Shown here piece by piece: positions 13,775 through 27,716 of a DNA stretch of 64,000 nt (the stretch's first letter is position 1; each line of letters opens with the position of its first letter). The notes under the pieces are model-generated. The model was given only the letters and a program-made list of their open reading frames with translations. It had not been told where the DNA came from and searched no databases. The stretch lies in the IMG/VR virus record IMGVR_UViG_3300038393_002515. One strand, written 5' to 3'. The position numbers and the translations under genes were made by a program. Source of the DNA: a virus.

Positions 13775-13802
13775 CCCCGCGCCCGGCGCGACGCCCCCAC
13801 CC

Positions 13803-14491: not shown

Positions 14492-14522
14492 CCTGCACGT
14501 TCGGCGGACCTTGCCCAACGGA

Positions 14523-14554
14523 TTGACACACGCATCTATGGATGCGTTAGGGTG
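14523..14554 (+). promoter_or_regulatory. conserved promoter-operator element, copy 3
   Basis: TTGACA-c-ACGCATCTATGGATGCGT-TAGGGTG. Confidence 0.65.
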
Positions 14555-14602
14555 GGATCCGTTGAGAGCAAGGCCCGCCCTTCCCGCCACCAGGAGAACA
14601 CC

Positions 14603-14818
14603 ATGAGCATCGCCGAGGGCGCCACGCCCGACCCGGCCACCATCCTCGCCGAGGTCATCAGCGCGTCGATGGAGTTCGAGACCGACCTGAACAGCGAGCG
14701 CTGCCGCACGGCGCACCACATCGCCATCGGCTTCGCCGACGCCTTGATGGTCCACCGCCCCGACTTCGACCGCGCCGCCTTCAGGGAGGCCTGCAAGCCC
14801 TCTTGGATGAACAAGTGA
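14603..14818 (+). CDS. hypothetical protein
   Basis: CAGGAGAACACC-ATG; behind promoter copy 3. Confidence 0.6.
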   Translation: MSIAEGATPDPATILAEVISASMEFETDLNSERCRTAHHIAIGFADALMVHRPDFDRAAFREACKPSWMNK

Positions 14819-15381
14819 TCGCCCGCAAGCTGCCGCCGCCGATCAAGCCGCGCACGCTGGTCCGGCGCAAGAACCCGATCCACGGCTACGACTACTCCAC
14901 CAACGACGGCCGGTACGAGATCTACCCGATCTACAAGGACCGCCGGTACAGCGGCCGGTCCAACGTCGTCGACTCCTGGGGGATCAGGGACCTGCACAGC
15001 GGCGAGAAGCGCGCCACGTACTACCCCCGGCTGGAGGACATCCGGCTGTACTACTGCACGCCGGTCAACGAGATGCCGTGGATCGTGCACGACGTGGACG
15101 ACGGCGTGCTGCGGGTGGAGCCGACCCGGAAGGCCGCCATCGCCTGGGCCTCCTCGCTCGCCGAGGCCACCAAGGTCCTGGAGCGCCACCGGTACGCCAG
15201 CGGCGGCTATGAGTACGTCTTCGGCGACTCCGACGGCGACGTCTGCGGCAACTACAACATCGTCCGCGCCGACCTCGCCTACATCGCCCACATCGACGCC
15301 ACGCAGCAGCCGCTGTACCCCTTCCCCGACGACCCGTTCGAGCAGGTCGACCGGCCCGCCCCGAAGACGGCCACCGCGTGA
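14815..15381 (+). CDS. hypothetical protein
   Basis: GTG 14815 overlaps the upstream TGA (GTGA); high GC3. Confidence 0.6.
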   Translation: MIARKLPPPIKPRTLVRRKNPIHGYDYSTNDGRYEIYPIYKDRRYSGRSNVVDSWGIRDLHSGEKRATYYPRLEDIRLYYCTPVNEMPWIVHDVDDGVLRVEPTRKAAIAWASSLAEATKVLERHRYASGGYEYVFGDSDGDVCGNYNIVRADLAYIAHIDATQQPLYPFPDDPFEQVDRPAPKTATA

Positions 15382-15629
15382 CCGGCGAGACCTGCGGCGC
15401 GGAGCACCCCGAGCAGCCCGGCACCACGTGCGACCGCAAGCCACACCACAACGTCGGCTTCCACCGCGACAGCCGCACCGGCACCGTCTGGGAGGCCGAC
15501 CCGCTGCCCGTCGTCGAGGGCAGCGGCCGGGCCGCCCTCGCCGCCATCGCCGCCCGCACCACCCGACACCACCACACCGGCCCCGCCACCGGGGCCGTCA
15601 ACACCTGGAAGGACCGCCATGGGGACTGA
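15378..15629 (+). CDS. hypothetical His-rich protein
   Basis: GTGA overlap at 15378-15381. Confidence 0.55.
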   Translation: MTGETCGAEHPEQPGTTCDRKPHHNVGFHRDSRTGTVWEADPLPVVEGSGRAALAAIAARTTRHHHTGPATGAVNTWKDRHGD

Positions 15630-16116
15630 CCCCGCCCGCCTGAAGATCACCGTCACCCGCGACGACGTACTGAAGGGCCTGGAGAAGCACGCCAGCAACC
15701 TCAGCACCATCGCCGACATCGCGCGCGCCGTCGTCGCCGGTGTCCACGGGGTCGAAGGCGTCTGGGACGGCAAGACCGCCCTGTCTTACGTCCATCAGGC
15801 CGACCTCAAGCGGCTGCTGGCCGACATGGTCGCCGACGGCTCCCTGATCCTGCGTCCGGGCCCCGAGTGGGTCGAGCGTGGCGCGCCCACGTGGAACATC
15901 CGCAAGGGCGGCCACTACTACGCCTTGCCGCAGGAGGCCCGCCAGTGGCAGGAGGCGGCCGACCAGAGGCGCGCCCAGGCCCGCCAGGAGACGGCCGAGC
16001 GGCTCGCCCGGAACAAGCTGGTCGAGCTGCACCCGCGCCAGTACGCGGACCTGGTGAACGAGTACCTCGCCGCGTACGACCGCGTCGGCGCCCAGGAGAC
16101 GGAGCCCCTCGCGTGA
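15619..16116 (+). CDS. hypothetical protein
   Basis: ATG 15619 after GGAAGGA; 11-nt overlap with the upstream gene. Confidence 0.6.
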   Translation: MGTDPARLKITVTRDDVLKGLEKHASNLSTIADIARAVVAGVHGVEGVWDGKTALSYVHQADLKRLLADMVADGSLILRPGPEWVERGAPTWNIRKGGHYYALPQEARQWQEAADQRRAQARQETAERLARNKLVELHPRQYADLVNEYLAAYDRVGAQETEPLA

Positions 16117-16658
16117 GCAGCCTGCAGACGCCGGAGCCGCTTCAGCGGCTGACCCGCAACGCCTACCACCTCAACGTGCACTCCCTGGTCGACTGGGCCG
16201 AGCGCCATTACGTCGACTTCGACCCGCCGTACCAGCGTCAGGCCGTGTGGGGCGTGCGACGTCGTCAGCGACTGATCATGTCCCTCCTTCAGCAGCTCGC
16301 CGTCGGCGGCATCACGGTCAACAAGCGCGACGACCGGCTGACCTGGCCGAACGAGGCCGCGTTTGCCGTCATCGACGGCAAGCAGCGTTGGCAGACGCTG
16401 CTGATGTTCATGCGCGACGAGCTGGCCGTGCCGCGCTCCTGGTGGGACTCCAGCGAGCTGACCGACGCCTACGAGGAGACCCCCGACGGCCCGCACGTGC
16501 GGTACTCCCAGCTCACCCAGCGCGGACAATTCCGGTTCGATGCCCTCGCCATCCCGTTCGATGAGATGTACCTGAAGAGCGTGGACGCCGAACACAAGGT
16601 GTTCCGCCTGCTCAACACGGGCGGCCTGGCCCAGGGCGAGGAGGACGACGACAGGTGA
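16113..16658 (+). CDS. DUF262 (ParB/Srx-fold, GmrSD N-domain-like) protein
   Basis: DFDPPYQRQAVW and VIDGKQRWQTL (DGQQR-type) motifs; GTGA overlap at 16113. Confidence 0.65.
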   Translation: MSSLQTPEPLQRLTRNAYHLNVHSLVDWAERHYVDFDPPYQRQAVWGVRRRQRLIMSLLQQLAVGGITVNKRDDRLTWPNEAAFAVIDGKQRWQTLLMFMRDELAVPRSWWDSSELTDAYEETPDGPHVRYSQLTQRGQFRFDALAIPFDEMYLKSVDAEHKVFRLLNTGGLAQGEEDDDR

Positions 16659-16689
16659 CGGCCGGGCATGTCAGTGCCCTCCCCTACGG

Positions 16690-16716
16690 TGGCGCCGAGC
16701 GTGATGCCCGGCGCCA
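16690..16716 (+). terminator. terminator after DUF262 operon
   Basis: TGGCGCCG / CGGCGCCA stem, then CATGCGTTTTC. Confidence 0.55.
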
Positions 16717-16736
16717 CATGCGTTTTCGGCACCGGG

Positions 16737-16768
16737 TTGACACATGCATCTATGGATGCGTTAGGGTG
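16737..16768 (+). promoter_or_regulatory. conserved promoter-operator element, copy 4
   Basis: TTGACA-c-ATGCATCTATGGATGCGT-TAGGGTG. Confidence 0.65.
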
Positions 16769-16798
16769 GAGTCAAGCCCGCCAAGGAAGGTGCACACC

Positions 16799-18502
16799 AT
16801 GACCCAGTCGCCCACCCTCGCCGAGACCCTTGCGATCCGGCCCGAGCAGCTCACCGGCCTCACGCCGGTCGAGGTCGACCGCTACAACGCCGTGCTGTGG
16901 ACCGAGTACGCCCGCCTCGCCGCCGCGATCGACAAGGCCGCCGACGGCATCCACAGCGCGCTGCTGCAGCGGAAGAAGAGCGAGCGGCACGGGCGCGGCT
17001 ACACCCAGGTGTGGCCGACGACGTTCGCCGAGGCCCTGCGCACGGCGCAGGAGCACCTGACCACCGGCTGGGAGCCGGACCAGGCCACCCGGGTGCAGCA
17101 CGGCCTGTACCGCGAGGGCGCCTACGCCGCGAGCCTGCGCAAGGCGCTGGACTTCTACAACGCCTTGGGCGCCGCGCGGCAGCGGCTCAGCGACGGCCCC
17201 GGCGCCGTCCTCGACGGTGAGTTCACCCGGCGGGGCGGCTGGTCGCGCATGTACCTGTGCACCTCCGACGGCGGCCACATCCACAGCGGCCGCCAGTGCC
17301 CGAGCATCGGCCCGCGCACCGAGCTGGCGTGGCTGCCGGACGTCTCCGGCATGGACTGGCGCGAGGCGTACAAGGCCCTGCCGCAGAACCTCTCCGCCGG
17401 GAGCCCGGCGATCATGTGCACCAAGTGCTACCCGGACGCCCCGGTCGACTGGACCGTCAAGCAGGCCGACCCGACCGTCTGTCCCGGCTCCGGCAAGTCC
17501 GCGTGGGAGCACATGACGGAGCACCAGCGCGGCCTGTACATGAAGTACGGCAAGTGCCCGTACTGCCCCGACGACGCCGACCTCGTGAGCGTGACCAGCG
17601 GGTGGAAGTTCCGCAAGCACAAGACGGCCGCCCAGGCGGCGCCGGTCGCCGAGGAGCAGCCCGCCCCGCCCGCCCCGAAGGCGGCCGCCCCCAAGCTGAC
17701 GCCGACCCAGCAGAGCGCCCTCGACCTCATGCGCTCCCGCCACACCGGCATGATCCACAGCGGCGAGGGCTTCGCCATCACCACGGTGGACGCCCTCGCC
17801 CGGCACGGCCTGTGCACGGTGGAGAAGTCCAGGCGCGCCGACGGCGTCCTCCGCACCACCGCGTACACCTACTTCGAGGCCACCCTGACCGACAAGGGCT
17901 GGGAGGGCCACGAGCGCCCCGCCGAGCCCGGCCCCGCCTACGGCGAGCCCACCCCGAACGACGAGCTCGGCAAGGGCGACCGGGTGATCAACATCCACAC
18001 CGGCTCCGAGGGAGTGTGGCAGGGCCCCAGCCAGCTGGGCGGCTGGAGCGTCCGGGAGGACATCGGCGCGACGTTCAACATCCATGCGGGCGGCGGCGAT
18101 CACTGGCGCCTCTTGGAGCGGGCCCCTGAGGCGCCTGCCGAGCCCGTCGTTGAGCCGCAGGAGGCCGCCAGCGCCCCGGCCGAGGACGACGTGCCCCTCG
18201 ACCAGGACAAGCCCGTGACGCACGCCTACGGGCCCGCCGGGGTCCGCTACGAGCCCGGCATGCGGGTGACCCGGCGCGGCCGTGACGGCATGTGGGAGCA
18301 CGGGGAGGTGACCGAGGTCTTTGAGGCCGCCCACACCCGGGAGCCGCGCCTGCGCTTCACGGTGGACGCCTACCAGGCCGCCCCGCCCCGGCGTAAGCAG
18401 AAGTGGATGGACAACAAGCCCGGCAAGCGCCGGTCGACCGAGCCCCGCTCGGCAATCGCCCTCGTCGCCGACAAGGACTTGAGCCCCGAAATCATCGCCT
18501 GA
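16799..18502 (+). CDS. large hypothetical protein with Cys clusters and an internal winged-helix-like segment
   Basis: AAGGAAGG-N8-ATG, 32 nt after promoter copy 4. The segment LTPTQQSALDLM...ALARHGL...LTDKG is wHTH-like. Confidence 0.65.
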   Translation: MTQSPTLAETLAIRPEQLTGLTPVEVDRYNAVLWTEYARLAAAIDKAADGIHSALLQRKKSERHGRGYTQVWPTTFAEALRTAQEHLTTGWEPDQATRVQHGLYREGAYAASLRKALDFYNALGAARQRLSDGPGAVLDGEFTRRGGWSRMYLCTSDGGHIHSGRQCPSIGPRTELAWLPDVSGMDWREAYKALPQNLSAGSPAIMCTKCYPDAPVDWTVKQADPTVCPGSGKSAWEHMTEHQRGLYMKYGKCPYCPDDADLVSVTSGWKFRKHKTAAQAAPVAEEQPAPPAPKAAAPKLTPTQQSALDLMRSRHTGMIHSGEGFAITTVDALARHGLCTVEKSRRADGVLRTTAYTYFEATLTDKGWEGHERPAEPGPAYGEPTPNDELGKGDRVINIHTGSEGVWQGPSQLGGWSVREDIGATFNIHAGGGDHWRLLERAPEAPAEPVVEPQEAASAPAEDDVPLDQDKPVTHAYGPAGVRYEPGMRVTRRGRDGMWEHGEVTEVFEAAHTREPRLRFTVDAYQAAPPRRKQKWMDNKPGKRRSTEPRSAIALVADKDLSPEIIA

Positions 18503-18512
18503 CCCGCATGGA

Positions 18513-18540
18513 CGGCCCGCCCCCAGACCGGGGCGGGCCG
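18513..18540 (+). terminator. intrinsic terminator
   Basis: CGGCCCGCCCC / GGGGCGGGCCG stem, then TGTTGTTCC. Confidence 0.65.
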
Positions 18541-18556
18541 TGTTGTTCCTGAAGGA

Positions 18557-18588
18557 TTGACACACGCATCTATGGATGCGTTAGGGTG
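18557..18588 (+). promoter_or_regulatory. conserved promoter-operator element, copy 5
   Basis: TTGACA-c-ACGCATCTATGGATGCGT-TAGGGTG. Confidence 0.65.
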
Positions 18589-18627
18589 AAGCTATCGATC
18601 CCGCCAAGGAAGACGAAGGAGGGCCGC

Positions 18628-19920
18628 ATGGCCACCCCCGAGAACGAGAAGAAGATCCGCCTTCAGACGGTGGGTTGGGTGCCCGCCGACGAGGTCGGAA
18701 ACCTGGAGGTCGGCGACCGGATCATGTGGAACGGCGGCAACACCTCCGAGGTCACCGACATCGAGCAGGTGTCGCGCTGCTTCCGGATGATCTCCCTCAA
18801 GTCCTCGGAGACCGGCAAGCCGCAGACGCCGCGCAGGCTCAAGACCACCGCCCTGGTCGCCCGCATCCCGCAGGCCAAGGAGGAAACCCCGACCACCGCC
18901 GAGATCCCGCCCGTCCGCCTGGCCATCGGTACCCGTGTGCGGCACTCCGGCCAGGAGTGGGCCACCAGCGTGCAGGCGCCCGAGGGCACCGCCATCGTGC
19001 TCGGTGTCGGCCGCACCCACGCCGATGGGTCGGTTGAGTACAAGGTACTGGCCGGACAGGACTTCTCCCGGCACATCGGCGGAGACAACCCCATGAACAC
19101 GCCGAAGGAGTGGAACAGCCTCCGCGTGCGGGAGGTCGCGCCGCCGCCCTTCGAGATGCCGGAGCCGCCCAACGGGTATCGGTTCGAGATCGAGCCGGGC
19201 CCGGGGCGGGTCACGGTGAAGATGTACGCCGACGGCATGGCCGCTCCCGTTCACCAGGACTGGACCGGGCACCCCATCGACAGCCCCGTCATCCCCGGCA
19301 TGGCCCGGGAAATGATCAGAGTGGAGACGGCCCACCGGGAGGAGACGGCCGCGCTGCTCGCCCTCGACGACGCCACCCTCTACGAGGTGTGCGAGTACCG
19401 GGGGAGCATGCCGACCGGGGACGCCGTCACGATGACCGGGAGCGCCGCGCGCGCCCGTCTCCAGGCCGCCCGCGAGGAGGCCGGGCCCGAGCGGCTCCAC
19501 GGCCGCAACTCGCCCCGTTTCACCCTGGAGCACTCTGGTGCCCACTGGTGGGCCACCACGCACGCCTACACCGCCGCCGGGCACCGGGACCAGGGGAACC
19601 GGCGCCACATCGCGGTGCAGCCCCTGGTTACGGCCCGCGCCGCCCAGGTGCTCATGGAGTACACGGGAGACGGCTGCATCACCCCGGTGGAGCAGCCCAG
19701 CGTGAGGGCGTTCGGCCCGTGGGTGCGGCCGGTGCCCAACTTCCCTGAGGACGTGGTGGTGCACTGGGTGACGTGCGGCACGCCGGTGCAGCCGGGGGCT
19801 GAGCGGTACGCGGACCACATGGAGACCTACCGGGCCGCCCTGGAGGGCGCCGGGTGGGAGTTCAAGGCCGCCACCGCCGACGGCGGCATGGTGTTCCAGG
19901 AGCCCGAGCGCACGGCCTGA
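18628..19920 (+). CDS. hypothetical protein
   Basis: GAAGGAGG-N5-ATG behind promoter copy 5. Confidence 0.65.
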   Translation: MATPENEKKIRLQTVGWVPADEVGNLEVGDRIMWNGGNTSEVTDIEQVSRCFRMISLKSSETGKPQTPRRLKTTALVARIPQAKEETPTTAEIPPVRLAIGTRVRHSGQEWATSVQAPEGTAIVLGVGRTHADGSVEYKVLAGQDFSRHIGGDNPMNTPKEWNSLRVREVAPPPFEMPEPPNGYRFEIEPGPGRVTVKMYADGMAAPVHQDWTGHPIDSPVIPGMAREMIRVETAHREETAALLALDDATLYEVCEYRGSMPTGDAVTMTGSAARARLQAAREEAGPERLHGRNSPRFTLEHSGAHWWATTHAYTAAGHRDQGNRRHIAVQPLVTARAAQVLMEYTGDGCITPVEQPSVRAFGPWVRPVPNFPEDVVVHWVTCGTPVQPGAERYADHMETYRAALEGAGWEFKAATADGGMVFQEPERTA

Positions 19921-19934
19921 CCTGCATAAACAGC

Positions 19935-19991
19935 GGCATGGCCCCACTCGCTAGACACGCATCTATGGATGCGTTAGGGTGGGGCCATGCC
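19935..19991. repeat. 13-bp perfect inverted repeat bracketing promoter copy 6
   Basis: GGCATGGCCCCAC (19935-19947) / GTGGGGCCATGCC (19979-19991). Confidence 0.75.
19952..19981 (+). promoter_or_regulatory. conserved promoter-operator element, copy 6
   Basis: TAGACA-CGCATCTATGGATGCGT-TAGGGTG (short-spacer class). Confidence 0.6.
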
Positions 19992-20039
19992 TGCCGGGGA
20001 AACCCGGCAGGAACCGACACTCCCGCCTAGGAGGAACCC

Positions 20040-20645
20040 GTGAGCGAGCAGCTGTTCAACGCCGGTGACCGCGTCCACATCGCCGAGAGCGAGCGCAACG
20101 GTCACACCTTCGGTGAGGCGTTCGGCCGCGTCGACCGCGACTACGGCGGCGAGTGGGTGAAGGTCTGCGTCGACGGCGAGCAGTACCCGTACCCGCACGA
20201 CGTCCCCGCGATCCCCCGCGAGCTGCTCACCCTGGTCGAGGCCGCCGAGGACGACGACGAGGAGGGGGAGACCGCGCCGCAGCCGCGCCGCGTCGAGTCG
20301 AGCAGCCAGGACCTGACCAGCGAGACCGCGTGGGACGGCACGAACTACCCGACGCACATGGTCGAGGTCTGGATCATGAACGACGGTAAGTTCATCGACA
20401 TCGCCCGCAACTTCGCCCGGTTCGACGAGACCGGCAAGCAGCTCGGCGAGTACCTCGGCCGCGTGCTGTTCGACCGGCGCGCGCTGCCCGCCGAGGAGCG
20501 CCGCCGGATCACCCGGGACACCGCCCACACGCTGGACCTGGTCGCCGGTGACCTCACGCAGGACGGCGACGACACCCCCGCCCGCGAGGCGCTGAAGCGG
20601 GTCGACTGGAAGCGCATCGCCTCCAGCCTGACCGACGGACAGTAG
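20040..20645 (+). CDS. hypothetical acidic protein
   Basis: CCCGCCTAGGAGG-N5-GTG behind promoter copy 6. Confidence 0.6.
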   Translation: MSEQLFNAGDRVHIAESERNGHTFGEAFGRVDRDYGGEWVKVCVDGEQYPYPHDVPAIPRELLTLVEAAEDDDEEGETAPQPRRVESSSQDLTSETAWDGTNYPTHMVEVWIMNDGKFIDIARNFARFDETGKQLGEYLGRVLFDRRALPAEERRRITRDTAHTLDLVAGDLTQDGDDTPAREALKRVDWKRIASSLTDGQ

Positions 20646-20653
20646 GCACGACG

Positions 20654-20717
20654 GCCCCGGCCCCGCCCACCCAGGGCGGGGCGGCGGACCGAGCCGGGTT
20701 CGATGCCCGGCCGGGGC
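20654..20717 (+). ncRNA. tRNA-like intercistronic element A (acceptor stem + hairpin + canonical T-arm, no D-arm/anticodon)
   Basis: GCCCCGG / CCCCGCCC-accca-GGGCGGGG / 12 nt / CCGGG-TTCGATG-CCCGG / CCGGGGC; starts 9 nt after stop 20645. Confidence 0.45.
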
Positions 20718-20755
20718 GCTCATCACCCACCCGCCACCACCACGAGGGGAACCCC

Positions 20756-21391
20756 ATGGCCGAGCGCCGCACCCGAGTCAGCAAGAGGACCGCCAACAAG
20801 GCCGCCGCCGAGGTGGCCGAACTGCTCGGCACCCTGGAGGGCTGGCAGAAGCGCAACCCCAACGTTGCCGACTACCGCGTGACCGAGGCCCTTGAGCACC
20901 TGCGCCGCGTCTCCGTCCTCGTGGGATACCTGGTCGACGACCGGGACCCCGAGGGGGACGCCGCCCGCGCCAAGCTGCGCGCGACTCGCGACGCCGAGGC
21001 GGCCCGAGGGATGGCCGACGCCGTTTGGAGCGACCTGCGAGACGGGAACGCCCACGTGGCCGACGTGTCCCCCAAGGGCGACGGTAAGACCTACACCCCG
21101 CCCACGGCCCTGCTGTTCCACTACGCCAGCCGTGACGTGCGCCTGACCCGGAGGAACGGCGCCGTGTACGCCACGATCACCGCCGGGCCGGGGACCGGCC
21201 GGGAGTGGTGGTCGAGCGCCGGAGCCGAGGAGGCCGTCAAGGCCATGGTTCGGGACCTCTACGGCGTCCACTGCGCCCACGAGTACGGCACCGGCCGCGA
21301 CTCCTGCCCCGGCTGCGACTACACCGAGGAGCAGTTCGAGGACCGCTACGCCGGGCGTCTGGGCATGATGCCCGCCAACCCGCTCGCCTGA
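20756..21391 (+). CDS. hypothetical protein
   Basis: GAGGGGAACCCC-ATG; lies between the two tRNA-like elements. Confidence 0.6.
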   Translation: MAERRTRVSKRTANKAAAEVAELLGTLEGWQKRNPNVADYRVTEALEHLRRVSVLVGYLVDDRDPEGDAARAKLRATRDAEAARGMADAVWSDLRDGNAHVADVSPKGDGKTYTPPTALLFHYASRDVRLTRRNGAVYATITAGPGTGREWWSSAGAEEAVKAMVRDLYGVHCAHEYGTGRDSCPGCDYTEEQFEDRYAGRLGMMPANPLA

Positions 21392-21398
21392 CACCACC

Positions 21399-21466
21399 GC
21401 CCCGGCCCCGCCCGCCGCCGACCGGGCGGGGCACGGTCCGAGACAGGTTCGATGCCTGTCCGGGGC
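21399..21466 (+). ncRNA. tRNA-like intercistronic element B
   Basis: GCCCCGG / CCCCGCCC-10 nt-GGGCGGGG / 11 nt / ACAGG-TTCGATG-CCTGT / CCGGGGC; starts 8 nt after stop 21391. The T-stem differs from element A by compensatory changes. Confidence 0.45.
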
Positions 21467-21502
21467 ACTCCTGACCGTCCCGCCAGACACAAGGGGGAGA
21501 GC

Positions 21503-22240
21503 ATGACCACCGCAACGCAACCCCGCCCGTCCGTCTCCAACGTCCGCGCGCTGGCCTCCTGGCTCGCCGACAACGACCTTCCCGGCCAGCGCAGCATGAC
21601 CGCCATCACGCGCCTGCGCCGCGAGCGCTCCACCAACCTGCCGCCCGTCGCCACCACGCCGGAGCCGGTGACCGCCCGGCTCGCCCGCCGCCTGGTCGCC
21701 GAGGCCCGCCGGGAGATCCGGCGCCGGGGCGGGGAAACCGTGATCCTGGGCAAGAACGACAGCGTGAGCGGCTCCCTGGTGCTCGCCGACCGCGACCGCG
21801 CGCAGCGCATCATCCTGGTGCGCGCCGAGGGCTGGCGCTACTACTCCAGCCGCTTCGGATCGCGGCACGTCGAACTGGCCTACCTGTACGGCCGCGACGA
21901 CGCCGGACCGTGGGCCGTGCGCGTCCCCGGCAGCATCACCACGGTGCGCGAGGGGCTCGCCTGGCTGACCCCGGCCGCCGTGAAGCAGGCCCGCGCCGAG
22001 AGGCGCCGGGTGCGCCGCCAGGGCGACGTGTACGCCGTGGAGACCACCGCCCGCCGCGACGGCCGGGGCGTGGCCGACCTGCCCGAGGCCCACGAGTGGC
22101 GCGCGTCCACGCGCCACCTGGTCCACAACCCCGACGACGGCCGCAAGCACCGCCCGCTGCGCCTGCCGTACCCGGTGGAGTTCATCCCCCAGCGCGCGTA
22201 CGAGATGGGCCGCAGCGGCGCGCGCGGCGCCGCCGACTGA
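21503..22240 (+). CDS. hypothetical protein
   Basis: AAGGGGGAGAGC-ATG 21503, in frame with ORF 21452..22240. Confidence 0.6.
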   Translation: MTTATQPRPSVSNVRALASWLADNDLPGQRSMTAITRLRRERSTNLPPVATTPEPVTARLARRLVAEARREIRRRGGETVILGKNDSVSGSLVLADRDRAQRIILVRAEGWRYYSSRFGSRHVELAYLYGRDDAGPWAVRVPGSITTVREGLAWLTPAAVKQARAERRRVRRQGDVYAVETTARRDGRGVADLPEAHEWRASTRHLVHNPDDGRKHRPLRLPYPVEFIPQRAYEMGRSGARGAAD

Positions 22241-22273
22241 CCACCATCCACCACCACACCCCGAGGGGGAGCC

Positions 22274-22660
22274 GTGAACATCCCGCGCATGGTGCGCAAG
22301 TACGCCCAGGATGCCCACAAGCGCTACACGACCGAGCTGGAGGCGATGCGCGAGCGCATCACGGAGCGCCCGGCAGATCTCACCGGAGACCGCTTCACCG
22401 AGTTCCACGCCGCCCGCGAGCTGTACAACCTCTACGCCAAGCCGCTTGCCCTGGACGCCGTCGGCAACAGTGCATACGACGACGCCAAGGTGTTGGACCG
22501 CATCGAGGACGCACGCCGCACCGCGCTCCGGTGGCTGCTGACCAGCAAGCCCCCCATGAGCGGCGTCATGGTCGTAGAGCAGCAGATCGCCGAGAACGAG
22601 GCGCGCCGGTTCCTCTCTCAGATGCAGGTGCTCGACATGCAGGAGGGCGAGGAGCAGTGA
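22274..22660 (+). CDS. hypothetical helical protein (paralog pair, member 1)
   Basis: GAGGGGGAGCC-GTG. ELEAMRERI and RRFLSQMQ blocks are shared with the next gene. Confidence 0.55.
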   Translation: MNIPRMVRKYAQDAHKRYTTELEAMRERITERPADLTGDRFTEFHAARELYNLYAKPLALDAVGNSAYDDAKVLDRIEDARRTALRWLLTSKPPMSGVMVVEQQIAENEARRFLSQMQVLDMQEGEEQ

Positions 22661-23061
22661 GCAAGAGCAGCGCCGCTCTGCTGGCCGAATTGCAGACGAA
22701 GGCGACGGCCGCCGTCGCCCACCTGGAGGCCATGCGCGAACGCATGCGCCGCCAGCTGGACCAGGGTTTTTACCTGGACGAGTTCGCCGCTTATGACCTC
22801 TTGTTGGCCGAAGGCATTCATGCCCAGTACCGGGAGATCGGCATCACGGCCGACGGTACCCTGCGCCGCCACGACGGTGAGACCGACGCCGACATGATCC
22901 AGGGCGCCCGCAACATCCGCCAGGAGATCCGGCGCAGGCTGGTCGAGGTGCCCGAGAGCATTCAGGTTGGCCTCTCCGCCGTCCGCCAGCACCAGACCCG
23001 GGAGGGCATGCGCCGCTTCCTTCGGGAGACCGAGTTCCTCGCCAAGGAGGTGACCGAGTGA
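22657..23061 (+). CDS. hypothetical helical protein (paralog pair, member 2)
   Basis: GTGA overlap at 22657; HLEAMRERM and RRFLRETE blocks. Confidence 0.55.
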   Translation: MSKSSAALLAELQTKATAAVAHLEAMRERMRRQLDQGFYLDEFAAYDLLLAEGIHAQYREIGITADGTLRRHDGETDADMIQGARNIRQEIRRRLVEVPESIQVGLSAVRQHQTREGMRRFLRETEFLAKEVTE

Positions 23062-23121
23062 GCCACCCGCGCCACCCCAAGAGGCCGAAGAGGCCGAGCC
23101 GCCCCCGGTAGGAGAGAGATC

Positions 23122-23358
23122 GTGAGCGAGATGCAGTGGCCCGCCCGGGGGGCGACCGTGCTGGTTCAGGACGTCATGAGCGAGGCTCTCGCGCAGATGA
23201 GGACCAGCAAGGAGCCGCCCGCCCGTAGGGGCGTGGTGGTCGAGACGCCCGCCGACGGCGGCGTTCATCTGACCATCGACACCGGCGGCGAGTACGGATG
23301 CGTGACCTACCCCGCGTTCGGCTTCGCCTCCTCGCACACCTGGAAGGGAGCCGCCTAG
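23122..23358 (+). CDS. hypothetical protein
   Basis: TAGGAGAGAGATC-GTG. Confidence 0.5.
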   Translation: MSEMQWPARGATVLVQDVMSEALAQMRTSKEPPARRGVVVETPADGGVHLTIDTGGEYGCVTYPAFGFASSHTWKGAA

Positions 23359-23379
23359 ACGGTAGCCATCGGCGGGAGT

Positions 23380-23429
23380 CCAGCAGGCCAGTGACCAGGG
23401 CAGATACGCCCCGGTTGCTGGCCTGCTGG
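23380..23429 (+). terminator. long-loop hairpin upstream of promoter copy 7
   Basis: 12-bp stem CCAGCAGGCCAG / CTGGCCTGCTGG with a 26-nt loop. Confidence 0.4.
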
Positions 23430-23449
23430 CATTGGTGCGCTCAAGGGGC

Positions 23450-23481
23450 TTGACTCATGCATCTATGGATGCGTTAGGGTG
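23450..23481 (+). promoter_or_regulatory. conserved promoter-operator element, copy 7
   Basis: AAGGGGC-TTGACT-c-ATGCATCTATGGATGCGT-TAGGGTG. Confidence 0.65.
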
Positions 23482-23524
23482 GGACCAGTCCCGCCGGACA
23501 CCACCACCCGAAGGAGGGCCCACC

Positions 23525-25489
23525 ATGGCCACCACGCGACTCAGCGACACGATGATCACTGCGCTGCTGGACGCGCTCACCCACAGGGGGAGCGACGGCC
23601 GCTATCAGCTTCTCACCCGGGGCGCCACCCGCGCCGCGCTGGAGGCTCGCGGCAAGGTCGAGCGAGAGGACGGCCGCGACAACTACGGACGGCCGCGCAC
23701 GCACCACTACCTCACCGCCGACGCCGTCACCTACCTGCGCAACGCGCTGGAGTACACGCTGAACCAGCGCGGCGAGGACCGTGACCGGGTGTGGCAGGAG
23801 TGGCTGAACGCTGATCGCCGCCACGAGTGGGCCTTGATCGACTTCCTGGGCCTGACGGCCGACACGTACGAGATCACCACCACCACGCCCCAGGAGCGCA
23901 AGCCGCACCGCGAGACCCTCGGCCGCGCGGACGCCTGGGAGCGCATCGGCAACACCCTGCGCAACGGCCAGCGCATCACCCTGGACGACGGCGCCATGAC
24001 GGCACACACCAAGCTGGGTGCCACCTGGACGTTCACGCCGATCCGCCCGGCCGCCGAGGAGGCCCCGGCCGCGCCCGAGCCGCGCCCGGCCGCCGAGGTG
24101 CTCGCCGCCGACCCGATCCCGGCGGACACCTCGGTCCTGGAGGGCATGCCGGGCCAGCCGGTCGGCCGCGAGGGCGTGCCCACCACGGACGCGGTCACGC
24201 ACGAGGCGTACGTGGTCCAGATCCGCAACAGGGACGCGTGGCAGCTCCCCAACCACGACGACGGCGCCCACATGACGCGCGCCAGCGTGATCAGCTCGCT
24301 GGCGTGGGCGCGCCAGGCCGCCCCGGGCCACACGCGGGCCTCGGTCGACACGGACGGCACGGTGTACGTGTCCACGGGCCGCCAGGCCGCCCGCTACATC
24401 CCCGCCTCGCTGCTCGCCGACTACTCCGCCGACACCTGCCCCGGCTGCGGCACCGCGTACGCCACGAACGGCGACGGCCCGTGTGACGGCTGGGCCGCCC
24501 TGCCCTCCCTGCCGGTCGCCGAGGAGGCCGACCCCGAGGCCAAGCCGTGCGAGGGCTGCGGCGCCCCTGCGGGTGAGCCGTGCGAGCCCATGAGCATGTG
24601 CGAGGCCGCCCGCGAGGAGGCCGTGTCGGCGCGGCTCGCCGAGGAGGACGGGGAGCGCGGCATGGTCTACGGGCCGCACCGCATCACCAACACCGGCGAC
24701 GACATCGAACACACGGCCCAGGACGGCGGCAAGTACGGCATCCGTGCGTTCGAATGCACCCGGTGCCACAAGCGCGCCATCCTTGCTGACTTCGAGTACG
24801 GCCGCGTGGAGTGCACCGAGGAGGCCGAGGCCGAGTGGGCCCGCGAGCGCGCTGAGGGGCTGCTCAACGACCACTTCTTCAAGGGCGCCACCGCGTATGA
24901 GGTGGACGTGCCCACCGACGACAAGGGCGGGAGCGTCACCTACACCCACGACCGGGAGACGGCCGCGCGGTTCGTCGCTGCCCTGCTCGGCCTGGGGGCG
25001 ACTCACGGATGGTTCCGTGATGGTCTGCGCCTGACGCACGACGGCAGTGTGAACAAGGTGCGGCCCGTTGTTGCGCGGGTGCAGGAGGACGAGGAGGCCG
25101 AGCCCCTCGACGAGATGGGCACTGATGCCCTCCTGGAGGTGCTGCGCGAGCACGCGGGCGAGCTCCCCGCCGACAGCACGTTCGCCAAGGCGTGGGCGCT
25201 CATGGACCGCATCTTGACCGACGGCGGCATCGAGTGCCTTCCCGCGCCGTGGGACGGCTACGCCGACCAGGCGGAGCCCATCGACCTGCAGGCGCTTCCG
25301 CCCCGCGCCAAGTACGTGACGGTGGGTGAGCTGCAGGTGGGTGACGTGTTCGTGACGCGCTGCGCGTGGATCGTGCGCGCCATCGACGGCGGCACGTTCA
25401 CCGCTGAGCGGTGGGACGGTGAGCAGACGGTGACTCAGACCGTGCCGGAGAGCACGAAGGTTCTGCGGACGCGCCGCGCCCAGGGCTGA
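23525..25489 (+). CDS. large hypothetical protein, N-terminal winged-helix-like module
   Basis: GAAGGAGG-N7-ATG behind promoter copy 7. The N-terminus (TRLSDTMITALLDAL...ARGKV...YLTADA) is paralogous to the next large gene. Confidence 0.65.
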   Translation: MATTRLSDTMITALLDALTHRGSDGRYQLLTRGATRAALEARGKVEREDGRDNYGRPRTHHYLTADAVTYLRNALEYTLNQRGEDRDRVWQEWLNADRRHEWALIDFLGLTADTYEITTTTPQERKPHRETLGRADAWERIGNTLRNGQRITLDDGAMTAHTKLGATWTFTPIRPAAEEAPAAPEPRPAAEVLAADPIPADTSVLEGMPGQPVGREGVPTTDAVTHEAYVVQIRNRDAWQLPNHDDGAHMTRASVISSLAWARQAAPGHTRASVDTDGTVYVSTGRQAARYIPASLLADYSADTCPGCGTAYATNGDGPCDGWAALPSLPVAEEADPEAKPCEGCGAPAGEPCEPMSMCEAAREEAVSARLAEEDGERGMVYGPHRITNTGDDIEHTAQDGGKYGIRAFECTRCHKRAILADFEYGRVECTEEAEAEWARERAEGLLNDHFFKGATAYEVDVPTDDKGGSVTYTHDRETAARFVAALLGLGATHGWFRDGLRLTHDGSVNKVRPVVARVQEDEEAEPLDEMGTDALLEVLREHAGELPADSTFAKAWALMDRILTDGGIECLPAPWDGYADQAEPIDLQALPPRAKYVTVGELQVGDVFVTRCAWIVRAIDGGTFTAERWDGEQTVTQTVPESTKVLRTRRAQG

Positions 25490-25565
25490 CCAGCACGAAC
25501 AGCGGGGGTCGGGAGCAGCACCCCGGCCCCTGCTGTCATGCCCGGGGCCGGTCGGCACAAGGGGC

Positions 25566-25597
25566 TTGACTCATGCATCTATGGATGCGTTAGGGTG
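25566..25597 (+). promoter_or_regulatory. conserved promoter-operator element, copy 8
   Basis: AAGGGGC-TTGACT-c-ATGCATCTATGGATGCGT-TAGGGTG, identical to copy 7. Confidence 0.65.
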
Positions 25598-25637
25598 GGC
25601 CAGTCCCGCCGGACACCACCACCCGAAGGAGCACCAC

Positions 25638-27056
25638 ATGACCACGAAGCTGAAGATCACCAAGACGATGGGCGAGCACCTGGTGCGCGCGCTCGCCAAC
25701 GGCAACCGCGAGGTCGTCGGCGCCCGCACCAACACCGAGCGCGCCATGATCGGTCACGGACTCGTGCGTCACCAGGAGCTGAAGACGCGCGTCACGGACT
25801 CGCATGGTCACCTGGTCCGCTCGCACGGCCTGGTGCTCACCGAGCAGGGTGAGGCCGAGGCCAAGCGCCTGACGGGGCCGACGACCACCGAGGAGCGCGC
25901 GGCGGCCGTCACCCGCGAGGACGTGGCCGAGGGTGTGCGGCTGGCGCTGAACTACCTCGGGTTCGGCGAGCGCCGCCGGGAGGCCGAGCAGGCCCCCGCC
26001 TCCGAGGTGCTGGAGGGTGAGTTCCAGCGGATTCGCCGCGTGATGCGCCGCGCCATGAAGCACAACGGCGCCGAGGCCGCACACCAGGCGCTCAAGCAGT
26101 ACAACCACACCGAGGCGCTGCTGATCGCGGCGCGCCGGTTCGAGGCGGAGGACGCGGCCCAGGAGGCCGCCCAGGAGGGGAGCAAGGTGGAGGAGCAGCA
26201 GGAGCAGGGGGCACCGGTGACCGAGCAGCCCGCCGACCGCATGGCGTGCGGGTGCACGCTGGAGGAGGTCGCCAACAAGCACCGGTCCGGCTGCGGCTTC
26301 AACCGCCGCCCCGGCTACAACCCGTGGGCGCCGTACATGAGCCGCAACAGCGGCCCGTACCGGGACCCGCGCCCGGCGCTGGCCATCTGCTCGGTGCACG
26401 AGGGTGAGCACATGGGTTCGGCTGAGTGCCGTTACCCCTACATTCCGGCGCGCGCCGCCGTCAATGAGCCCGCTGAATTCCGGGGGCTCACCCGCGCCGA
26501 CGTCGCCGAGGAGGCCGCGCGGGCGCTGGAGACGCTGAGCGCCGAGGACCGGGCCACGGTCGAGGGACACGCGCCGTCCGTGATTCTGGGCATGGCGTTC
26601 CGCCGGGCGCAGACGGCCTACTGCGCCGACCGCCGCGAGCGCACCGCCGAGGAGGAGGCCGCTTACGATCGTTGCGCCAACATCGCGAGCGCCGCCCTGA
26701 TCTTCGAGCGGGCCGACGACCCCGAGGCCGCCGCCGCCGCGCGGGCCGATGACTTCCGCATCACGAGCGCCGAGCGCGCCGAGGAGGCCAAGCGCCGCGA
26801 GGAGGCGCACGCGCGGGTGATGGCGGCCCAGTGGCGCGGCGCGCAGCGTCACGGTAAGTACCTGGTGCGCACCGAGGAGGTTGGTCACGGCCTGGTGCGG
26901 GTGTGGGTCCGGGGCCCGGCCACGGAGATCGAGAGCATCGAGCGCGCGTCGGTCGCGTACGCCCGGGGCAACGGTCTGCGCCCGGGAGCGTCCGCCGGGG
27001 GCGGGGAGTTCTTCGAGGGCGACTACATCGCCCAGCGCGCCTACCACCGCGCCTGA
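25638..27056 (+). CDS. large hypothetical protein, N-terminal winged-helix-like module
   Basis: Promoter copy 8 and its leader are nearly identical to copy 7. N-terminus KLKITKTMGEHLVRAL...GHGLV...LVLTEQG. Confidence 0.65.
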   Translation: MTTKLKITKTMGEHLVRALANGNREVVGARTNTERAMIGHGLVRHQELKTRVTDSHGHLVRSHGLVLTEQGEAEAKRLTGPTTTEERAAAVTREDVAEGVRLALNYLGFGERRREAEQAPASEVLEGEFQRIRRVMRRAMKHNGAEAAHQALKQYNHTEALLIAARRFEAEDAAQEAAQEGSKVEEQQEQGAPVTEQPADRMACGCTLEEVANKHRSGCGFNRRPGYNPWAPYMSRNSGPYRDPRPALAICSVHEGEHMGSAECRYPYIPARAAVNEPAEFRGLTRADVAEEAARALETLSAEDRATVEGHAPSVILGMAFRRAQTAYCADRRERTAEEEAAYDRCANIASAALIFERADDPEAAAAARADDFRITSAERAEEAKRREEAHARVMAAQWRGAQRHGKYLVRTEEVGHGLVRVWVRGPATEIESIERASVAYARGNGLRPGASAGGGEFFEGDYIAQRAYHRA

Positions 27057-27089
27057 GCGCCCAGGTCGCAGAGCTGACAGCACCACCAC

Positions 27090-27116
27090 GGGCGCCCCGA
27101 CCCCACCGGGGCGCCC
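27090..27116 (+). terminator. GC hairpin after 25638..27056
   Basis: GGGCGCCCCG-accccac-CGGGGCGCCC. Confidence 0.55.
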
Positions 27117-27184
27117 CCGCACAGACAGAAGACCGAGCACCCCATGACGGTGGTGCGCCGACTGGAGCCGGGGGAGTGGCAGTA

Positions 27185-27499
27185 GTGAGCTGGCTGGAGG
27201 AGTACCGGGCGTACAGGGCGCCGGACAACGTGGAGCAGGCACGCCACCGTAAGGCCATGCGGGGAGTCGCGGTGTACCCCATGGCGCCCGTGCGTGAGGG
27301 GGCGACGCTGGAGGAGTGGGCGGCGTGGCTGGAGGCAGACCAGACCGAGCGCGACTACATGAGCGCGTACAGGGAGAGCGGGTACGGGTTCATGCACCCC
27401 ATCGTGACGGCACTCAGTGAGTACCGGGCGGTGGCCCAGGCGGTGCACGGACGGATGGAGTACACGAACGCCCACCGGGACGAGTGGGGCGACGAGTAG
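27185..27499 (+). CDS. hypothetical protein
   Basis: GGGGGAG-N8-GTG 27185, in frame with ORF 26903..27499; normal composition only from this point. Confidence 0.5.
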   Translation: MSWLEEYRAYRAPDNVEQARHRKAMRGVAVYPMAPVREGATLEEWAAWLEADQTERDYMSAYRESGYGFMHPIVTALSEYRAVAQAVHGRMEYTNAHRDEWGDE

Positions 27500-27515
27500 G
27501 GGCAGGAGCCAGCGA

Positions 27516-27551
27516 ACGGCAGGGGCAGGCACAGGAGCGCGCCCCTGCCGT
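27516..27551 (+). terminator. terminator hairpin
   Basis: ACGGCAGGGGC / GCCCCTGCCGT stem, then TTCGTATG. Confidence 0.55.
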
Positions 27552-27652
27552 TTCGTATGCCTGTGTGCGCATATGTGGCGAGTCGGACACCCCTTGGGAG
27601 GGGGTGAGACCGGGCCGGGCCTGGGCGCTCCGGATTGATTCGGGTAAGGGGC

Positions 27653-27684: not shown

Positions 27685-27716
27685 AGGCTCCCGCCGTACA
27701 GTGAGGAGCATTGATC

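Follow-up and report, generated by a model that had tools for sequence, protein, structure and literature searches.

Serial tRNA-like elements in operons of a Streptomyces phage-plasmid clade: a conserved family of candidate RNA-processing signals

tRNA-like signals for the processing of mRNA are established in organelles, in a few eukaryotic non-coding RNAs and in eukaryotic viruses. In mitochondrial tRNA punctuation, reportedly recognised by Ojala, Montoya and Attardi in 1981, the processing of tRNAs is said to free the mRNAs. MALAT1/mascRNA and the TMERs of gammaherpesvirus MHV68 carry tRNA-like RNase P / RNase Z signals of which the module is not aminoacylated, and in the early region of phage T7 a host endoribonuclease, RNase III, cuts polycistronic mRNA at long imperfect duplexes. 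The action of bacterial RNase P on operon mRNAs is, to our knowledge, anecdotal only and comes with no recognisable motif. Plant mitochondria harbour t-elements, which reportedly go back to Hanic-Joyce in 1990. These were found via the motif GGTTCRANYCC and adopt non-canonical cloverleaves (PMC1920247), and their role in directing the RNase P/Z cleavage that forms mRNA 5′ and 3′ ends has been partly shown (Forner et al. 2007, PMC1920247).

The window analysed here is the whole 64,000-nt stretch of IMG/VR virus record IMGVR_UViG_3300038393_002515, in which a preliminary description had pointed out two tRNA-like elements between consecutive genes. Reading of the sequence found all the coordinates and features given for them to be present and exact to the base. 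Elements A (20654..20721) and B (21399..21470) were assessed by sequence reading, fold z-score, covariance model and minihelix scan; both, together with their parts, leaders, trailers, flanking genes and the promoter-like motif upstream, lie on the + strand. The two share a common plan within 64–68 nt, namely a 7-bp closing stem, a GC hairpin adjoining its 5′ strand, a linker of 11–12 nt with CCGAG at its 3′ end, and a T-arm abutting the 3′ strand of the closing stem. In element A, the 5′ acceptor-like strand GCCCCGG (20654-60) is followed by hairpin 1, of 8 bp with the loop ACCCA (CCCCGCCC/ACCCA/GGGCGGGG, 20661-81), the linker CGGCGGACCGAG (20682-93), the T-arm CCGGG/TTCGATG/CCCGG (20694-98 / 20699-705 / 20706-10), the 3′ acceptor-like strand CCGGGGC (20711-17), a G at the discriminator position (20718) and CTC (20719-21). 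Element B has the same acceptor-like strands (GCCCCGG, 21399-405; CCGGGGC, 21460-66), which enclose a hairpin 1 of 9 bp with an 8-nt loop (21406-31), the linker CACGGTCCGAG (21432-42) and the T-arm ACAGG/TTCGATG/CCTGT (21443-47 / 21448-54 / 21455-59), and it continues with a discriminator-position A (21467) and CTC (21468-70). The sequence directly 3′ of the closing stem is GCTCATCACC or ACTCCTGACC.

A C/A-rich leader of 8 nt (GCACGACG, 20646..20653) separates the TAG stop codon of the upstream gene (20643-45) from G1 of element A, and the 7-nt leader CACCACC (21392..21398) lies between a TGA (21389-91) and G1 of element B. The trailer of element A (20722..20755), C/A-rich and G-poor, contains the box CACCCACCCGCC and the Shine-Dalgarno sequence GAGGGG (20744-49) ahead of the next ATG at 20756; that of element B (21471..21502) contains the box GTCCCGCC and the Shine-Dalgarno sequence GGGGGAG (21493-99), with the next ATG at 21503. 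In the latter a weak hairpin is predicted (−9.6 kcal/mol) and CTCC/CCC may pair with the Shine-Dalgarno sequence. Hairpins of this kind in the trailers are weak and inconsistent (−1.4 to −9.6 kcal/mol).

The stretch 19951..19980 resembles a promoter that contains an operator palindrome (CTAGACACGCATCTATGGATGCGTTAGGGT), and this motif recurs in the intergenic regions 13775-13831, 14492-14551, 18503-18585 and 27057-27710; it likely marks the start of the transcription unit that holds A and B. Since this motif lies upstream and no promoter-like site was found between the genes carrying the elements, we infer that A and B sit within an operon, in keeping with the polycistronic setting that had been claimed for them. 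The gene upstream of A (20040..20645; GC3 0.97) encodes a 201-aa ORFan with the C-terminus ...SLTDGQ, and its orthologues in relatives are followed by an element too. Between A and B lies the gene of a 211-aa ORFan (20756..21391) with a C-terminal CPGCD motif, for which only 16 homologues were found among 5.8 billion proteins; those that were traced belong to Streptomyces, mostly on contigs of ~150 kb, with a few from metagenome contigs of other lengths. The gene downstream of B (21503..22240) encodes a 245-aa ORFan, a homologue of which, on a plasmid of S. goshikiensis, seems to be the first gene of an operon that lies next to a regulator gene transcribed in the opposite direction. Sequence searches of the flanking proteins against Pfam, PHROG and PDB returned no match. 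The gap at 22241-22273 is free of an element and has a similar C/A-rich spacer. The position of the elements behind stop codons was suggestive of readthrough or recoding, which we rejected because the lengths are not multiples of 3, element A does not keep the reading frame of the gene that follows, and TAA, TAG and TGA are all used as stops.

Folded singly, A and B were each predicted to form the proposed three-way junction or a version of it with a slightly shifted register, with stabilities of −47 to −49 kcal/mol and z-scores of −3.2 (A) and −3.5 (B), and 0/200 shuffles folded equally well. The composite motif exceeds chance, unlike the 11-mer GGTTCGATGCC alone, which is not significant (3 observed vs 1.97 expected) and the third occurrence of which, at 16534, we attribute to chance because it lies inside a coding region without stems. 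A generic minihelix scan of both strands, which demanded TTCRANN, G53:C61, at least 4/5 T-stem pairs and a directly adjoining 7/7 closing stem, matched A and B only in the window and three homologous elements only in the related replicon pRLB1-9.1 (150 kb), with a mean of 0.24 matches on mononucleotide shuffles. A covariance model trained on eight copies matched A with 73.8 bits (E = 6e-11) and B with 87.1 bits (E = 2e-13), and its matches in relatives added copies with E-values between 1e-13 and 5e-4, a more distant copy (L009) scoring E = 0.006.

Altogether 26 distinct copies were found across about 14 replicons or contigs, and almost every carrier is a Streptomyces phage-plasmid of ~150 kb that is a relative of pRLB1-9.1. 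The carrier of pRLB1-9.1 itself is the cultured Streptomyces sp. RLB1-9. Each replicon holds 2–3 copies in successive intergenic regions, the complete pRLB1-9.1 having exactly 3, and all copies are located on the coding strand. They begin 6–9 nt past the upstream stop codon, with the exception of L040, near which no stop was identifiable. The leader of 6–9 nt has the consensus (G)CACCACC, and leaders and trailers throughout the family are rich in C and A, poor in G and without predicted structure. Element length ranges from 64 to 72 nt, with linkers of 9–13 nt and hairpin loops of 4–10 nt. A pattern scan of genome collections found copies on Streptomyces contigs only (4/5 of them ~150 kb). When the region was compared with 50,697 phage records by Megablast, nothing matched, a sensitive search of the same records with the 111-nt gap that holds element B gave short tRNA-Arg matches only, and no member of the family was found in that collection. 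Scanning metagenomes for the linker and T-loop pattern yielded 60 matches, all without a complementary T-stem or closing stem and hence taken as chance, and a viral scan with the closing stem unconstrained returned no member with a different closing stem, only unrelated tRNA-like oddities. No description of these elements was found in the published literature. The elements are a small conserved family confined to one clade of phage-plasmids.

This distribution bears on whether the elements might act as DNA, for instance as a recombination or module boundary, as an attC-/att-like tyrosine recombinase site or as a MITE-like insertion that shuffles cassettes. Relatives retain the elements but have a mosaic gene content around and between them, the window is without one gene-plus-element unit found in L006/L032, some copies have CACCACC on both flanks, pRLB1-9.1 encodes two tyrosine recombinases, and the near-invariant sequence of the closing stem (see below) would suit such a site. 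We nonetheless regard a DNA-level role as improbable, as all copies share a single orientation relative to the genes, no copies were found elsewhere in the replicon and those in genome collections are on Streptomyces contigs only. The CACCACC flanks are inconsistent and match the general C/A-rich spacer that is also present at the element-free 22241-73; a target-site duplication was rejected on account of these inconsistent repeats, which we do not count as evidence for mobility. Moreover, the paralogous element types predate the divergence of the replicons, and stem covariation together with the fixed T-loop argues for a folded single strand under tRNA-type constraints.

The covariation was evaluated across 23 copies, in which T-stem pair 51:63 occurs as all four Watson-Crick pairs (AU 9, GC 7, CG 5, UA 1, mismatch 1). 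Overall, 96% of the cells are paired, versus 26–59% with the 3′ partners slid, and the covariation score of 0.173, as against 0.065 in shuffles, was reached by 0/500 shuffles. RNAalifold recovered the T-stem and the closing stem independently. Between A and B, the T-stem differs at 49:65 (C:G vs A:T) and at 51:63 (G:C vs A:T), from which covariation had been claimed at the outset; both changes are real, but family-wide only 51:63 is robust, 49:65 being paired in 14/23 copies and unpaired in 9/23. Hairpin 1 exists in at least 8 compensated stem versions, including CCCCGCCC/GGGCGGGG, CCCCGGC/GCCGGGG, CGCCCGC/GCGGGCG and TACGC/GCGTA, and compensation is seen even among orthologous copies behind one upstream gene, while the loop is variable in length and sequence. 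Retention of the pairing at homologous loci had been put forward as a test of the structure, and the pairing is indeed kept there through compensatory changes. In the T-loop TTCRANN, G53, T54, T55, C56, R57, A58 and C61 are fixed in 26 copies, which extends the T-arm consensus first noted for A and B, and positions 59-60 are free (TG, CT, TT, AG, GG, AC); copies found via the model or synteny and not via the pattern conform as well. The closing stem is nearly invariant and displays G-U wobbles only, with no covariation. Wobble counts were uninformative as a strand indicator (4 G-U on the + strand vs 4 A-C/C-A, that is, minus-strand G-U).

Comparison with tRNA-Arg(CCT/TCT) genes gave 7/7 identities in the 5′ strand and 22/24 in the 3′ 24 nt, and the 3′ 29 nt of element B are ~90% identical to tRNA-Arg(tct) of Streptomyces phages. 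As the acceptor and T-arm resemble those of tRNA-Arg(YCU), the elements are likely to descend from a phage tRNA-Arg gene. They are tRNA-like, not tRNAs. A 7-bp acceptor stacked on the T-arm, a consensus T-loop and G53:C61 are all present (49:65 is paired in 14/23), but in place of a D-arm and a 7-nt anticodon loop a single hairpin adjoins the 5′ strand of the acceptor. CCA is not encoded, and throughout the family the discriminator position is followed by C-N-C, mostly CTC. ARAGORN run in five modes (including standard, low-threshold, armless-mitochondrial and tmRNA) found nothing, and Rfam, searched with gathering thresholds and again with E <= 10, contained no family of relevance that matched, tRNA, tmRNA and Y-RNA included, which agrees with the earlier statement that these are not tRNAs. 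Weak Rfam matches to ZMP-ZTP, miRNA and Scr1601 families lay within coding regions or on the other strand, and we regard them as chance. A tmRNA was rejected, pair 3:70 being C:G and not G3:U70 and both the tmRNA mode of ARAGORN and Rfam being negative, and so was a bacterial Y RNA (YrlA) module, given that Rfam had no match at E <= 10 and that the elements lie between ORFan genes; no Ro60-type family was detected among the 20 window proteins scanned, which included all genes from 15867 to 29096. In sequence and fold, the elements do have the attributes of t-elements: their T-arm carries GGTTCRANNCC, their closing stem is acceptor-like and their tRNA-like fold is non-canonical.

Similarity to tRNA-Arg(YCU), together with degenerate copies such as L035:11068 (loop ACCGAAT) and L035:10576 (two mismatches), could also suggest decaying tRNA-Arg pseudogenes or att remnants that are functionless now. 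This appears highly improbable to us in view of three paralogous lineages, each kept in >10 replicons with compensatory substitutions, and of the constant placement past stop codons. An att remnant, named in the preliminary description as the case that would overturn its reading, would keep the 3′ part of a host tRNA gene only, in one copy beside an integrase or at the edge of an element; here the closing stem retains its 5′ as well as its 3′ strand, and 2–3 diverged copies lie between consecutive genes of each replicon. The integrase genes of pRLB1-9.1 are ~12–19 kb from its elements.

A further pattern concerns the genes that flank the elements. The type of element tracks the gene on its 5′ side, whereas the genes on its 3′ side vary: 211-aa orthologues are followed by a B-type element regardless of the next gene, and in five orthologous 'CPGCD' genes a B-type or closely related element is kept with downstream genes that fall in four clusters. 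In three copies (L005:2332, L003:10395 and L033:9840) a promoter-like sequence follows the element, so that these copies would end a transcription unit. In addition, a neighbouring gap in L033 contains a plain hairpin with the stem CCCCGCCC/GGGCGGGG, and the gap after the homologous gene in the distant relative L036 contains a canonical terminator. This linkage to the upstream gene, sometimes at the end of an operon, makes a 3′-end or stability role for the upstream cistron a serious rival, albeit one that we hold to be rather unlikely. The stable three-way junction would then stop 3′ exonucleases, terminate transcription partially or without a factor, or do both, the tRNA-like sequence being inherited from the tRNA-Arg ancestor and the T-loop kept for compact folding; constant placement 6–9 nt past the stop codon and the very stable folds are in keeping with this. 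However, an intrinsic terminator was rejected since there is no U-tract and a terminator scan of 13–30 kb called 18512-18541 and neither A nor B. Transcription must also run on past A and B, because a Shine-Dalgarno sequence and start codon follow ~37 nt further on without a promoter, and a plain stability hairpin does not need invariant T54-A58 and G53:C61 while 59-60 and the stems drift.

We favour, with a probability of roughly 0.4, the reading of A and B as t-element-like signals at which RNase P, RNase Z or both enzymes of the host would cut. Their structure with its conservation and covariation, their strand and position and their resemblance to tRNA-Arg are observed; that they are transcribed within the mRNA and acted upon by these enzymes we infer. 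The host tRNA-maturation enzymes would recognise the coaxial acceptor/T-arm minihelix with its genuine T-loop. RNase P would cut directly 5′ of G1, 6–9 nt past the upstream stop, and RNase Z 3′ of the purine at the discriminator position, the latter being possible because CCA is not encoded and CTC comes next. The operon transcript would in this way be split into separate cistrons, of which the upstream message would gain a defined 3′ end and the downstream message would be set free or would carry a base-paired 5′ end as a cap, and a ~65-nt tRNA-like RNA might be released. The logic would be that of mitochondrial tRNA punctuation and of the plant-mitochondrial t-elements.

Several observations argue against such processing. 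Bacterial RNase P has as its determinants the D-loop/T-loop elbow (specificity domain), a 3′ RCCA and a U at N-1; the elements are without a D-loop and a 3′ RCCA and have C, G or A at N-1. Pair 49:65 is often unpaired (9/23) and the closing stem is without covariation. Cleavage by RNase P would also leave the 3′ end of the upstream mRNA unprotected 6–9 nt past the stop, which is awkward given the linkage of the elements to the upstream gene, and as some copies close an operon, a 3′-end, terminator or stabiliser role fits equally well.

The near-invariance of the closing stem hints at sequence-specific recognition, which tRNA-processing enzymes in general do not need. A broader and more doubtful proposal is one of true tRNA punctuation in a bacterial virus or plasmid. 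Anticodon-less descendants of a phage tRNA-Arg gene, set behind one cistron after another, would be cut by RNase P and RNase Z of the host, perhaps with the CCA-adding enzyme taking part, so that the mRNA is divided into units of differing stability and CCA-tailed ~65-nt minihelices are released, with GCCCCGG/CCGGGGC read by a specific phage or host factor. The released minihelix might even be the product itself, a CCA-tailed decoy, substrate or regulator for a factor of the host or of a defence system that binds tRNA. The unusually invariant closing stem would fit with this, and a related replicon, pRLB1-9.1, encodes a large 2′-5′ RNA ligase (2H) family protein. We consider this idea very unlikely, as an anticodon loop is lacking, the loop of the hairpin varies in sequence and in length (4–10 nt), no dedicated small-RNA promoter or terminator is present, and no tRNA-targeting partner was found, the flanking genes being ORFans. 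Of the interpretation offered in the preliminary description, a tRNA-like RNA that is not a tRNA, with conserved pairing and in a polycistronic setting, is thus upheld, whereas its suggestion of a decoy found no support.

The family is clearly recognisable by its sequence and structure, is absent from Rfam and occurs serially in operons of one Streptomyces phage-plasmid clade. Should processing be real, it would be the first time that a tRNA-punctuation system has been defined in a mobile element of bacteria, would offer a compact, portable cis-element to cut polycistronic RNAs in actinomycetes, and would be an example of phage tRNA genes put to a new use by exaptation.

Compared with known systems, the elements share with t-elements the GGTTCRANNCC T-arm, an acceptor-like stem, a non-canonical remainder and the fact that they are not decoding tRNAs, and they are likewise embedded in mRNA precursors beside coding regions, with the role of RNase P/Z being a proposal here. 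Unlike the organellar t-elements, they reside in a phage-plasmid, have one GC hairpin abutting the 5′ strand of the acceptor, no D-arm and a 9–13-nt linker in place of the variable region, and occur serially after consecutive genes. As in mitochondrial punctuation, structured tRNA-type units stand between the cistrons of a polycistronic transcript, but these marks are not functional tRNAs and occupy only 2–3 junctions per ~150-kb replicon. With tRNA-Arg(CCU/UCU) genes, including gene 147 of Streptomyces phage Starbow, they have in common the acceptor GCCC(C/T)GG / CCGGGG(C/T), the T-arm (A/G)CAGG-TTCGAnn-CCTG(T/C) and a GGTC motif 5′ of the T-stem, and they differ in having no D-arm, 7-nt anticodon loop or CCA, in their length of 64–72 nt and in being rejected by ARAGORN and the Rfam tRNA model. 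The RNase III sites of T7 are similarly intercistronic RNA structures of a phage operon that recruit a host endoribonuclease, as is proposed here, and shape the stability of the products, yet the enzyme and the fold are different and the T7 sites do not mimic tRNA. Finally, mascRNA and the TMERs resemble it in that a tRNA-like module forms the end of a neighbouring RNA, again as proposed here; in contrast to the elements described above, they are eukaryotic or eukaryotic-viral, with a full cloverleaf and in a Pol II or Pol III context.

The sequence of positions 20400-21700 was read directly, and every structural detail claimed for the two tRNA-like elements in the preliminary description was matched. 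Element A starts at G20654 and element B at G21399, following leaders of 8 and 7 nt after the stop codons TAG (20643-45) and TGA (21389-91), respectively. Both consist, in order, of GCCCCGG, an abutting GC hairpin, a linker, a 5-bp stem with the loop TTCGATG, CCGGGGC (directly abutting the T-stem), a purine and CTC. The GC hairpin comprises 8 bp with the loop ACCCA in A and 9 bp with an 8-nt loop in B, and the linker, of 12 nt in A and 11 nt in B, ends in CCGAG in both. Start codons preceded by a Shine-Dalgarno sequence follow at 20756 (after A) and 21503 (after B). Folded in isolation, A and B adopted a three-way junction or a near register variant, with energies of -49.3 and -47.1 kcal/mol (z = -3.2 and -3.5) that none of 200 shuffles equalled. 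The T-loop 11-mer by itself was not significant in the window (three found, about two expected), and its third copy, at 16534, was discarded as coding sequence. A generic two-strand scan for a T-arm with an abutting perfect 7-bp closing stem retrieved only A and B from the window, and only three homologous elements from 150 kb of a related plasmid, against a mean of 0.24 in shuffles; the composite structure was therefore judged significant.

The view that these elements are tRNA-like without being tRNAs was borne out. ARAGORN returned nothing in standard, low-threshold, armless-mitochondrial or tmRNA modes, the Rfam 15 search that had been suggested gave no relevant match for an 841-nt slice even at E ≤ 10, and the family lacks a D-arm, a 7-nt anticodon loop and an encoded CCA. 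A canonical terminator was ruled out as no U-tract follows the structure. So was an att-site remnant, the possibility raised earlier, since both closing-stem strands are kept and several diverged copies exist. Elsewhere, a 58-nt truncated tRNA-like sequence (AGCGGTC...CCGGGTTCGAACCCCGGGACCGTG), likewise without an ARAGORN call, was noted on the minus strand at ~3217-3274 of IMGVR_UViG_3300031823_000001, a 162-kb high-GC viral contig, amid an array of 27 tRNA genes; tRNA-like sequences that went uncalled by the program also occur on three further contigs (L103, L137 and L141).

Viral and genome collections were scanned by pattern, a covariance model was trained on eight copies, and loci encoding homologues of the 211-aa protein (the gene between A and B) were inspected; in all, about 14 replicons or contigs proved to contain 26 distinct copies. 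The carriers are almost all ~150-kb Streptomyces contigs or plasmids, among them those of MH60, cg35, A0642, NPDC021080, NPDC059761, S. griseoaurantiacus and RLB1-9. Single copies were found on a small contig of NPDC056670 (1,088 bp) and a 545-kb linear Streptomyces plasmid, and a more distant one on a 13-kb viral contig (L009). Sequence searches of 50,697 phage records found no family member, and a metagenome scan with the linker/T-loop pattern gave chance matches only. Every copy lies on the coding strand, and copies occupy consecutive intergenic gaps, two or three together. Where identifiable, the upstream stop codon lies 6-9 nt before the element, separated by a C/A-rich leader (consensus CACCACC); the copy on the 545-kb plasmid has no stop codon nearby. 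After most copies comes a C/A-rich, G-poor trailer that contains a CACCAyCCCGCC box and leads to a Shine-Dalgarno sequence and start codon. Three paralogous types were distinguished, each closer to its counterparts in other replicons than to its neighbours in the same replicon, which places the triplication before the divergence of these replicons. The gaps of more distant relatives hold other features: a 152-kb S. diacarni contig has repeated GTCCGGAC palindromes in gaps at 8390-11560, where the window has elements, and in a 251-kb contig the homologous gene is followed by a canonical terminator and a promoter. The S. diacarni contig also carries a 7-deazaguanine gene cluster (QueC, QueD, QueE and FolE) at 14448-18225.

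For 23 copies, pairing was assessed after aligning the closing stem and T-arm without gaps. Standard pairs occupied 96% of cells, compared with 26-59% when the 3' partners were slid, and RNAalifold independently recovered both stems. T-stem pair 51:63 occurs in all four Watson-Crick forms (AU 9, GC 7, CG 5, UA 1), 52:62 and 53:61 are invariant G:C, and 50:64 is C:G except for one U-G; as 49:65 is unpaired in 9 of the 23, only 4 bp of the T-stem are reliable. The closing-stem sequence is almost invariant (exceptions: two U5-G68, one G7-U66 and one A7-C66). The internal hairpin, with loops of 4-10 nt, always abuts the 5' strand of the closing stem; its own stem comes in eight or more compensated versions, with differing ones even behind orthologous upstream genes. 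The predicted preservation of pairing in homologous loci thus holds. The T-loop conforms to TTCRANN (TTCGATG, TTCAATG, TTCGACT, TTCGATT, TTCGAAG, TTCGAGG and TTCGAAC), a motif partly required by the pattern searches but shared by copies that the model or synteny brought to light; a truncated, apparently degenerate copy at 11068 of a related contig (L035) breaks it with ACCGAAT. The A/B family is a real RNA element family of narrow host range that is not in Rfam.

Chance matches of the pattern to real tRNA genes revealed that the acceptor stem of tRNA-Arg(CCT/TCT) genes is the same as in the elements and their T-arm almost identical (compare, for example, ACAGGTTCGAATCCTGTCCGGGGCG with ACAGGTTCGATGCCTGTCCGGGGCA in element B). 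When element B was searched by BLAST against phages, the matches were confined to tRNA-Arg genes of Streptomyces phages of ~131 kb, at their 3' ends, with ~90% identity over 29 nt; the one gene examined was tRNA-Arg(tct). The GGTC of the element linker also resembles the variable-loop AGGTC of these genes. From these shared parts, it is reasonable to infer that the elements descend from a phage-borne tRNA-Arg(YCU) gene, which would have lost its D-arm while its anticodon arm became a plain GC hairpin.

The window (~70% G+C) carries a GmrSD_N (type IV restriction-like) domain gene at 15867-16658, and genes for a phage portal (57840-60005; PHROG E = 8e-140), a pectate-lyase/tailspike-like protein (60002-62902) and an endolysin (62937-63842), which show that it belongs to a phage-plasmid. 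Its own replicon is present in JGI metagenomes, the longest contig among the matches listed being 154,856 bp. Among annotated relatives, the closest is pRLB1-9.1, a circular Streptomyces plasmid of 154 kb, itself a phage-plasmid as its genes for ParA/ParB, DnaB and the alpha subunit of Pol III stand alongside those for an HK97-fold capsid protein and a baseplate protein. In its complete sequence there are exactly three elements and no credible tRNA gene. Just upstream of its region homologous to the window lies a gene (11468-13954 of the segment used; 61468-63954 of the record) whose 828-aa product bears the annotation '2'-5' RNA ligase family' (2H phosphoesterase) and may be an RNA-repair or RNA-end-processing enzyme.

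A and B sit in a same-strand run of ORFan genes encoding proteins of 201, 211 and 245 aa, none with a Pfam, PHROG or PDB match. This run is preceded, at 19951-19980 (gap 19921-20039), by a promoter-like motif with an embedded palindrome, TTGACAcACGCATCTATGGATGCGTTAGGgt, comprising a TTGACA-like -35 box, the inverted repeat GCATC-N4-GATGC and a TTAGGGT -10-like box. Copies in four more gaps (13775-13831, 14492-14551, 18503-18585 and 27057-27710) make the five look like co-regulated promoters with one common operator; the motifs immediately precede genes, of which some may be leaderless. Between the three genes, neither promoter-like nor terminator-like sites were found, so A and B are most simply intercistronic segments of a single mRNA. 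Conventional terminators are in use elsewhere on the replicon, given a canonical terminator-like hairpin at 18512-18541 (12 bp, 11 of them G-C, then GTTGTTCCTG) just before a promoter/operator motif. The 33-nt spacer at 22241-22273 (CCACCATCCACCACCACACCCCGAGGGGGAGCC) is trailer-like without an element and resembles an 'empty site', and the gaps at 23378-23431 and 25490-25565 form very stable long hairpins (whole-gap folds of ~-48 and ~-44 kcal/mol) without tRNA-like features, which are possibly further elements of processing, stability or termination. A weak ZMP/ZTP riboswitch match at 21305-21371, within the 211-aa coding region (26 bits; gathering score 39), was attributed to chance.

The family has kept a coaxial acceptor/T-stem with a true T-loop; its leader and trailer are single-stranded, G1 pairs with C72 and the discriminator position holds a purine. 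Enzymes that process tRNA ends recognise this module. Host RNase P and/or RNase Z may accordingly be proposed, with a probability of about 0.4, to cut at the elements and so punctuate the operon mRNA. The absence of a D-loop elbow partner and of RCCA, together with a non-U N-1, counts against such cleavage on the known determinants of bacterial RNase P. A serious rival, though a less probable one, is that each element acts as a 3' stabiliser or leaky terminator of the upstream cistron: element type goes with the upstream gene, although the genes that follow differ, and promoter-like sequences after three copies indicate that these close a transcription unit. The two roles are compatible, for instance if RNase Z cleavage left a tRNA-like 3' cap. 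A DNA-level role of the repeat appears improbable. Of the earlier interpretation, the tRNA-like character and conserved pairing stand and processing is plausible; the proposed decoy for tRNA-targeting host factors found no support.

Cleavage and punctuation are favoured on the basis of the conserved module and of the closest documented analogue, the plant-mitochondrial t-element. Such t-elements were found by the motif GGTTCRANYCC, have a non-canonical remainder, coincide with mRNA 5' and 3' ends and gain non-templated C/CA (PMC1920247). The T-arm motif and a non-canonical remainder are common to t-elements and the A/B family, which may be classed with tRNA-like (t-element-type) mRNA processing or end-forming signals.
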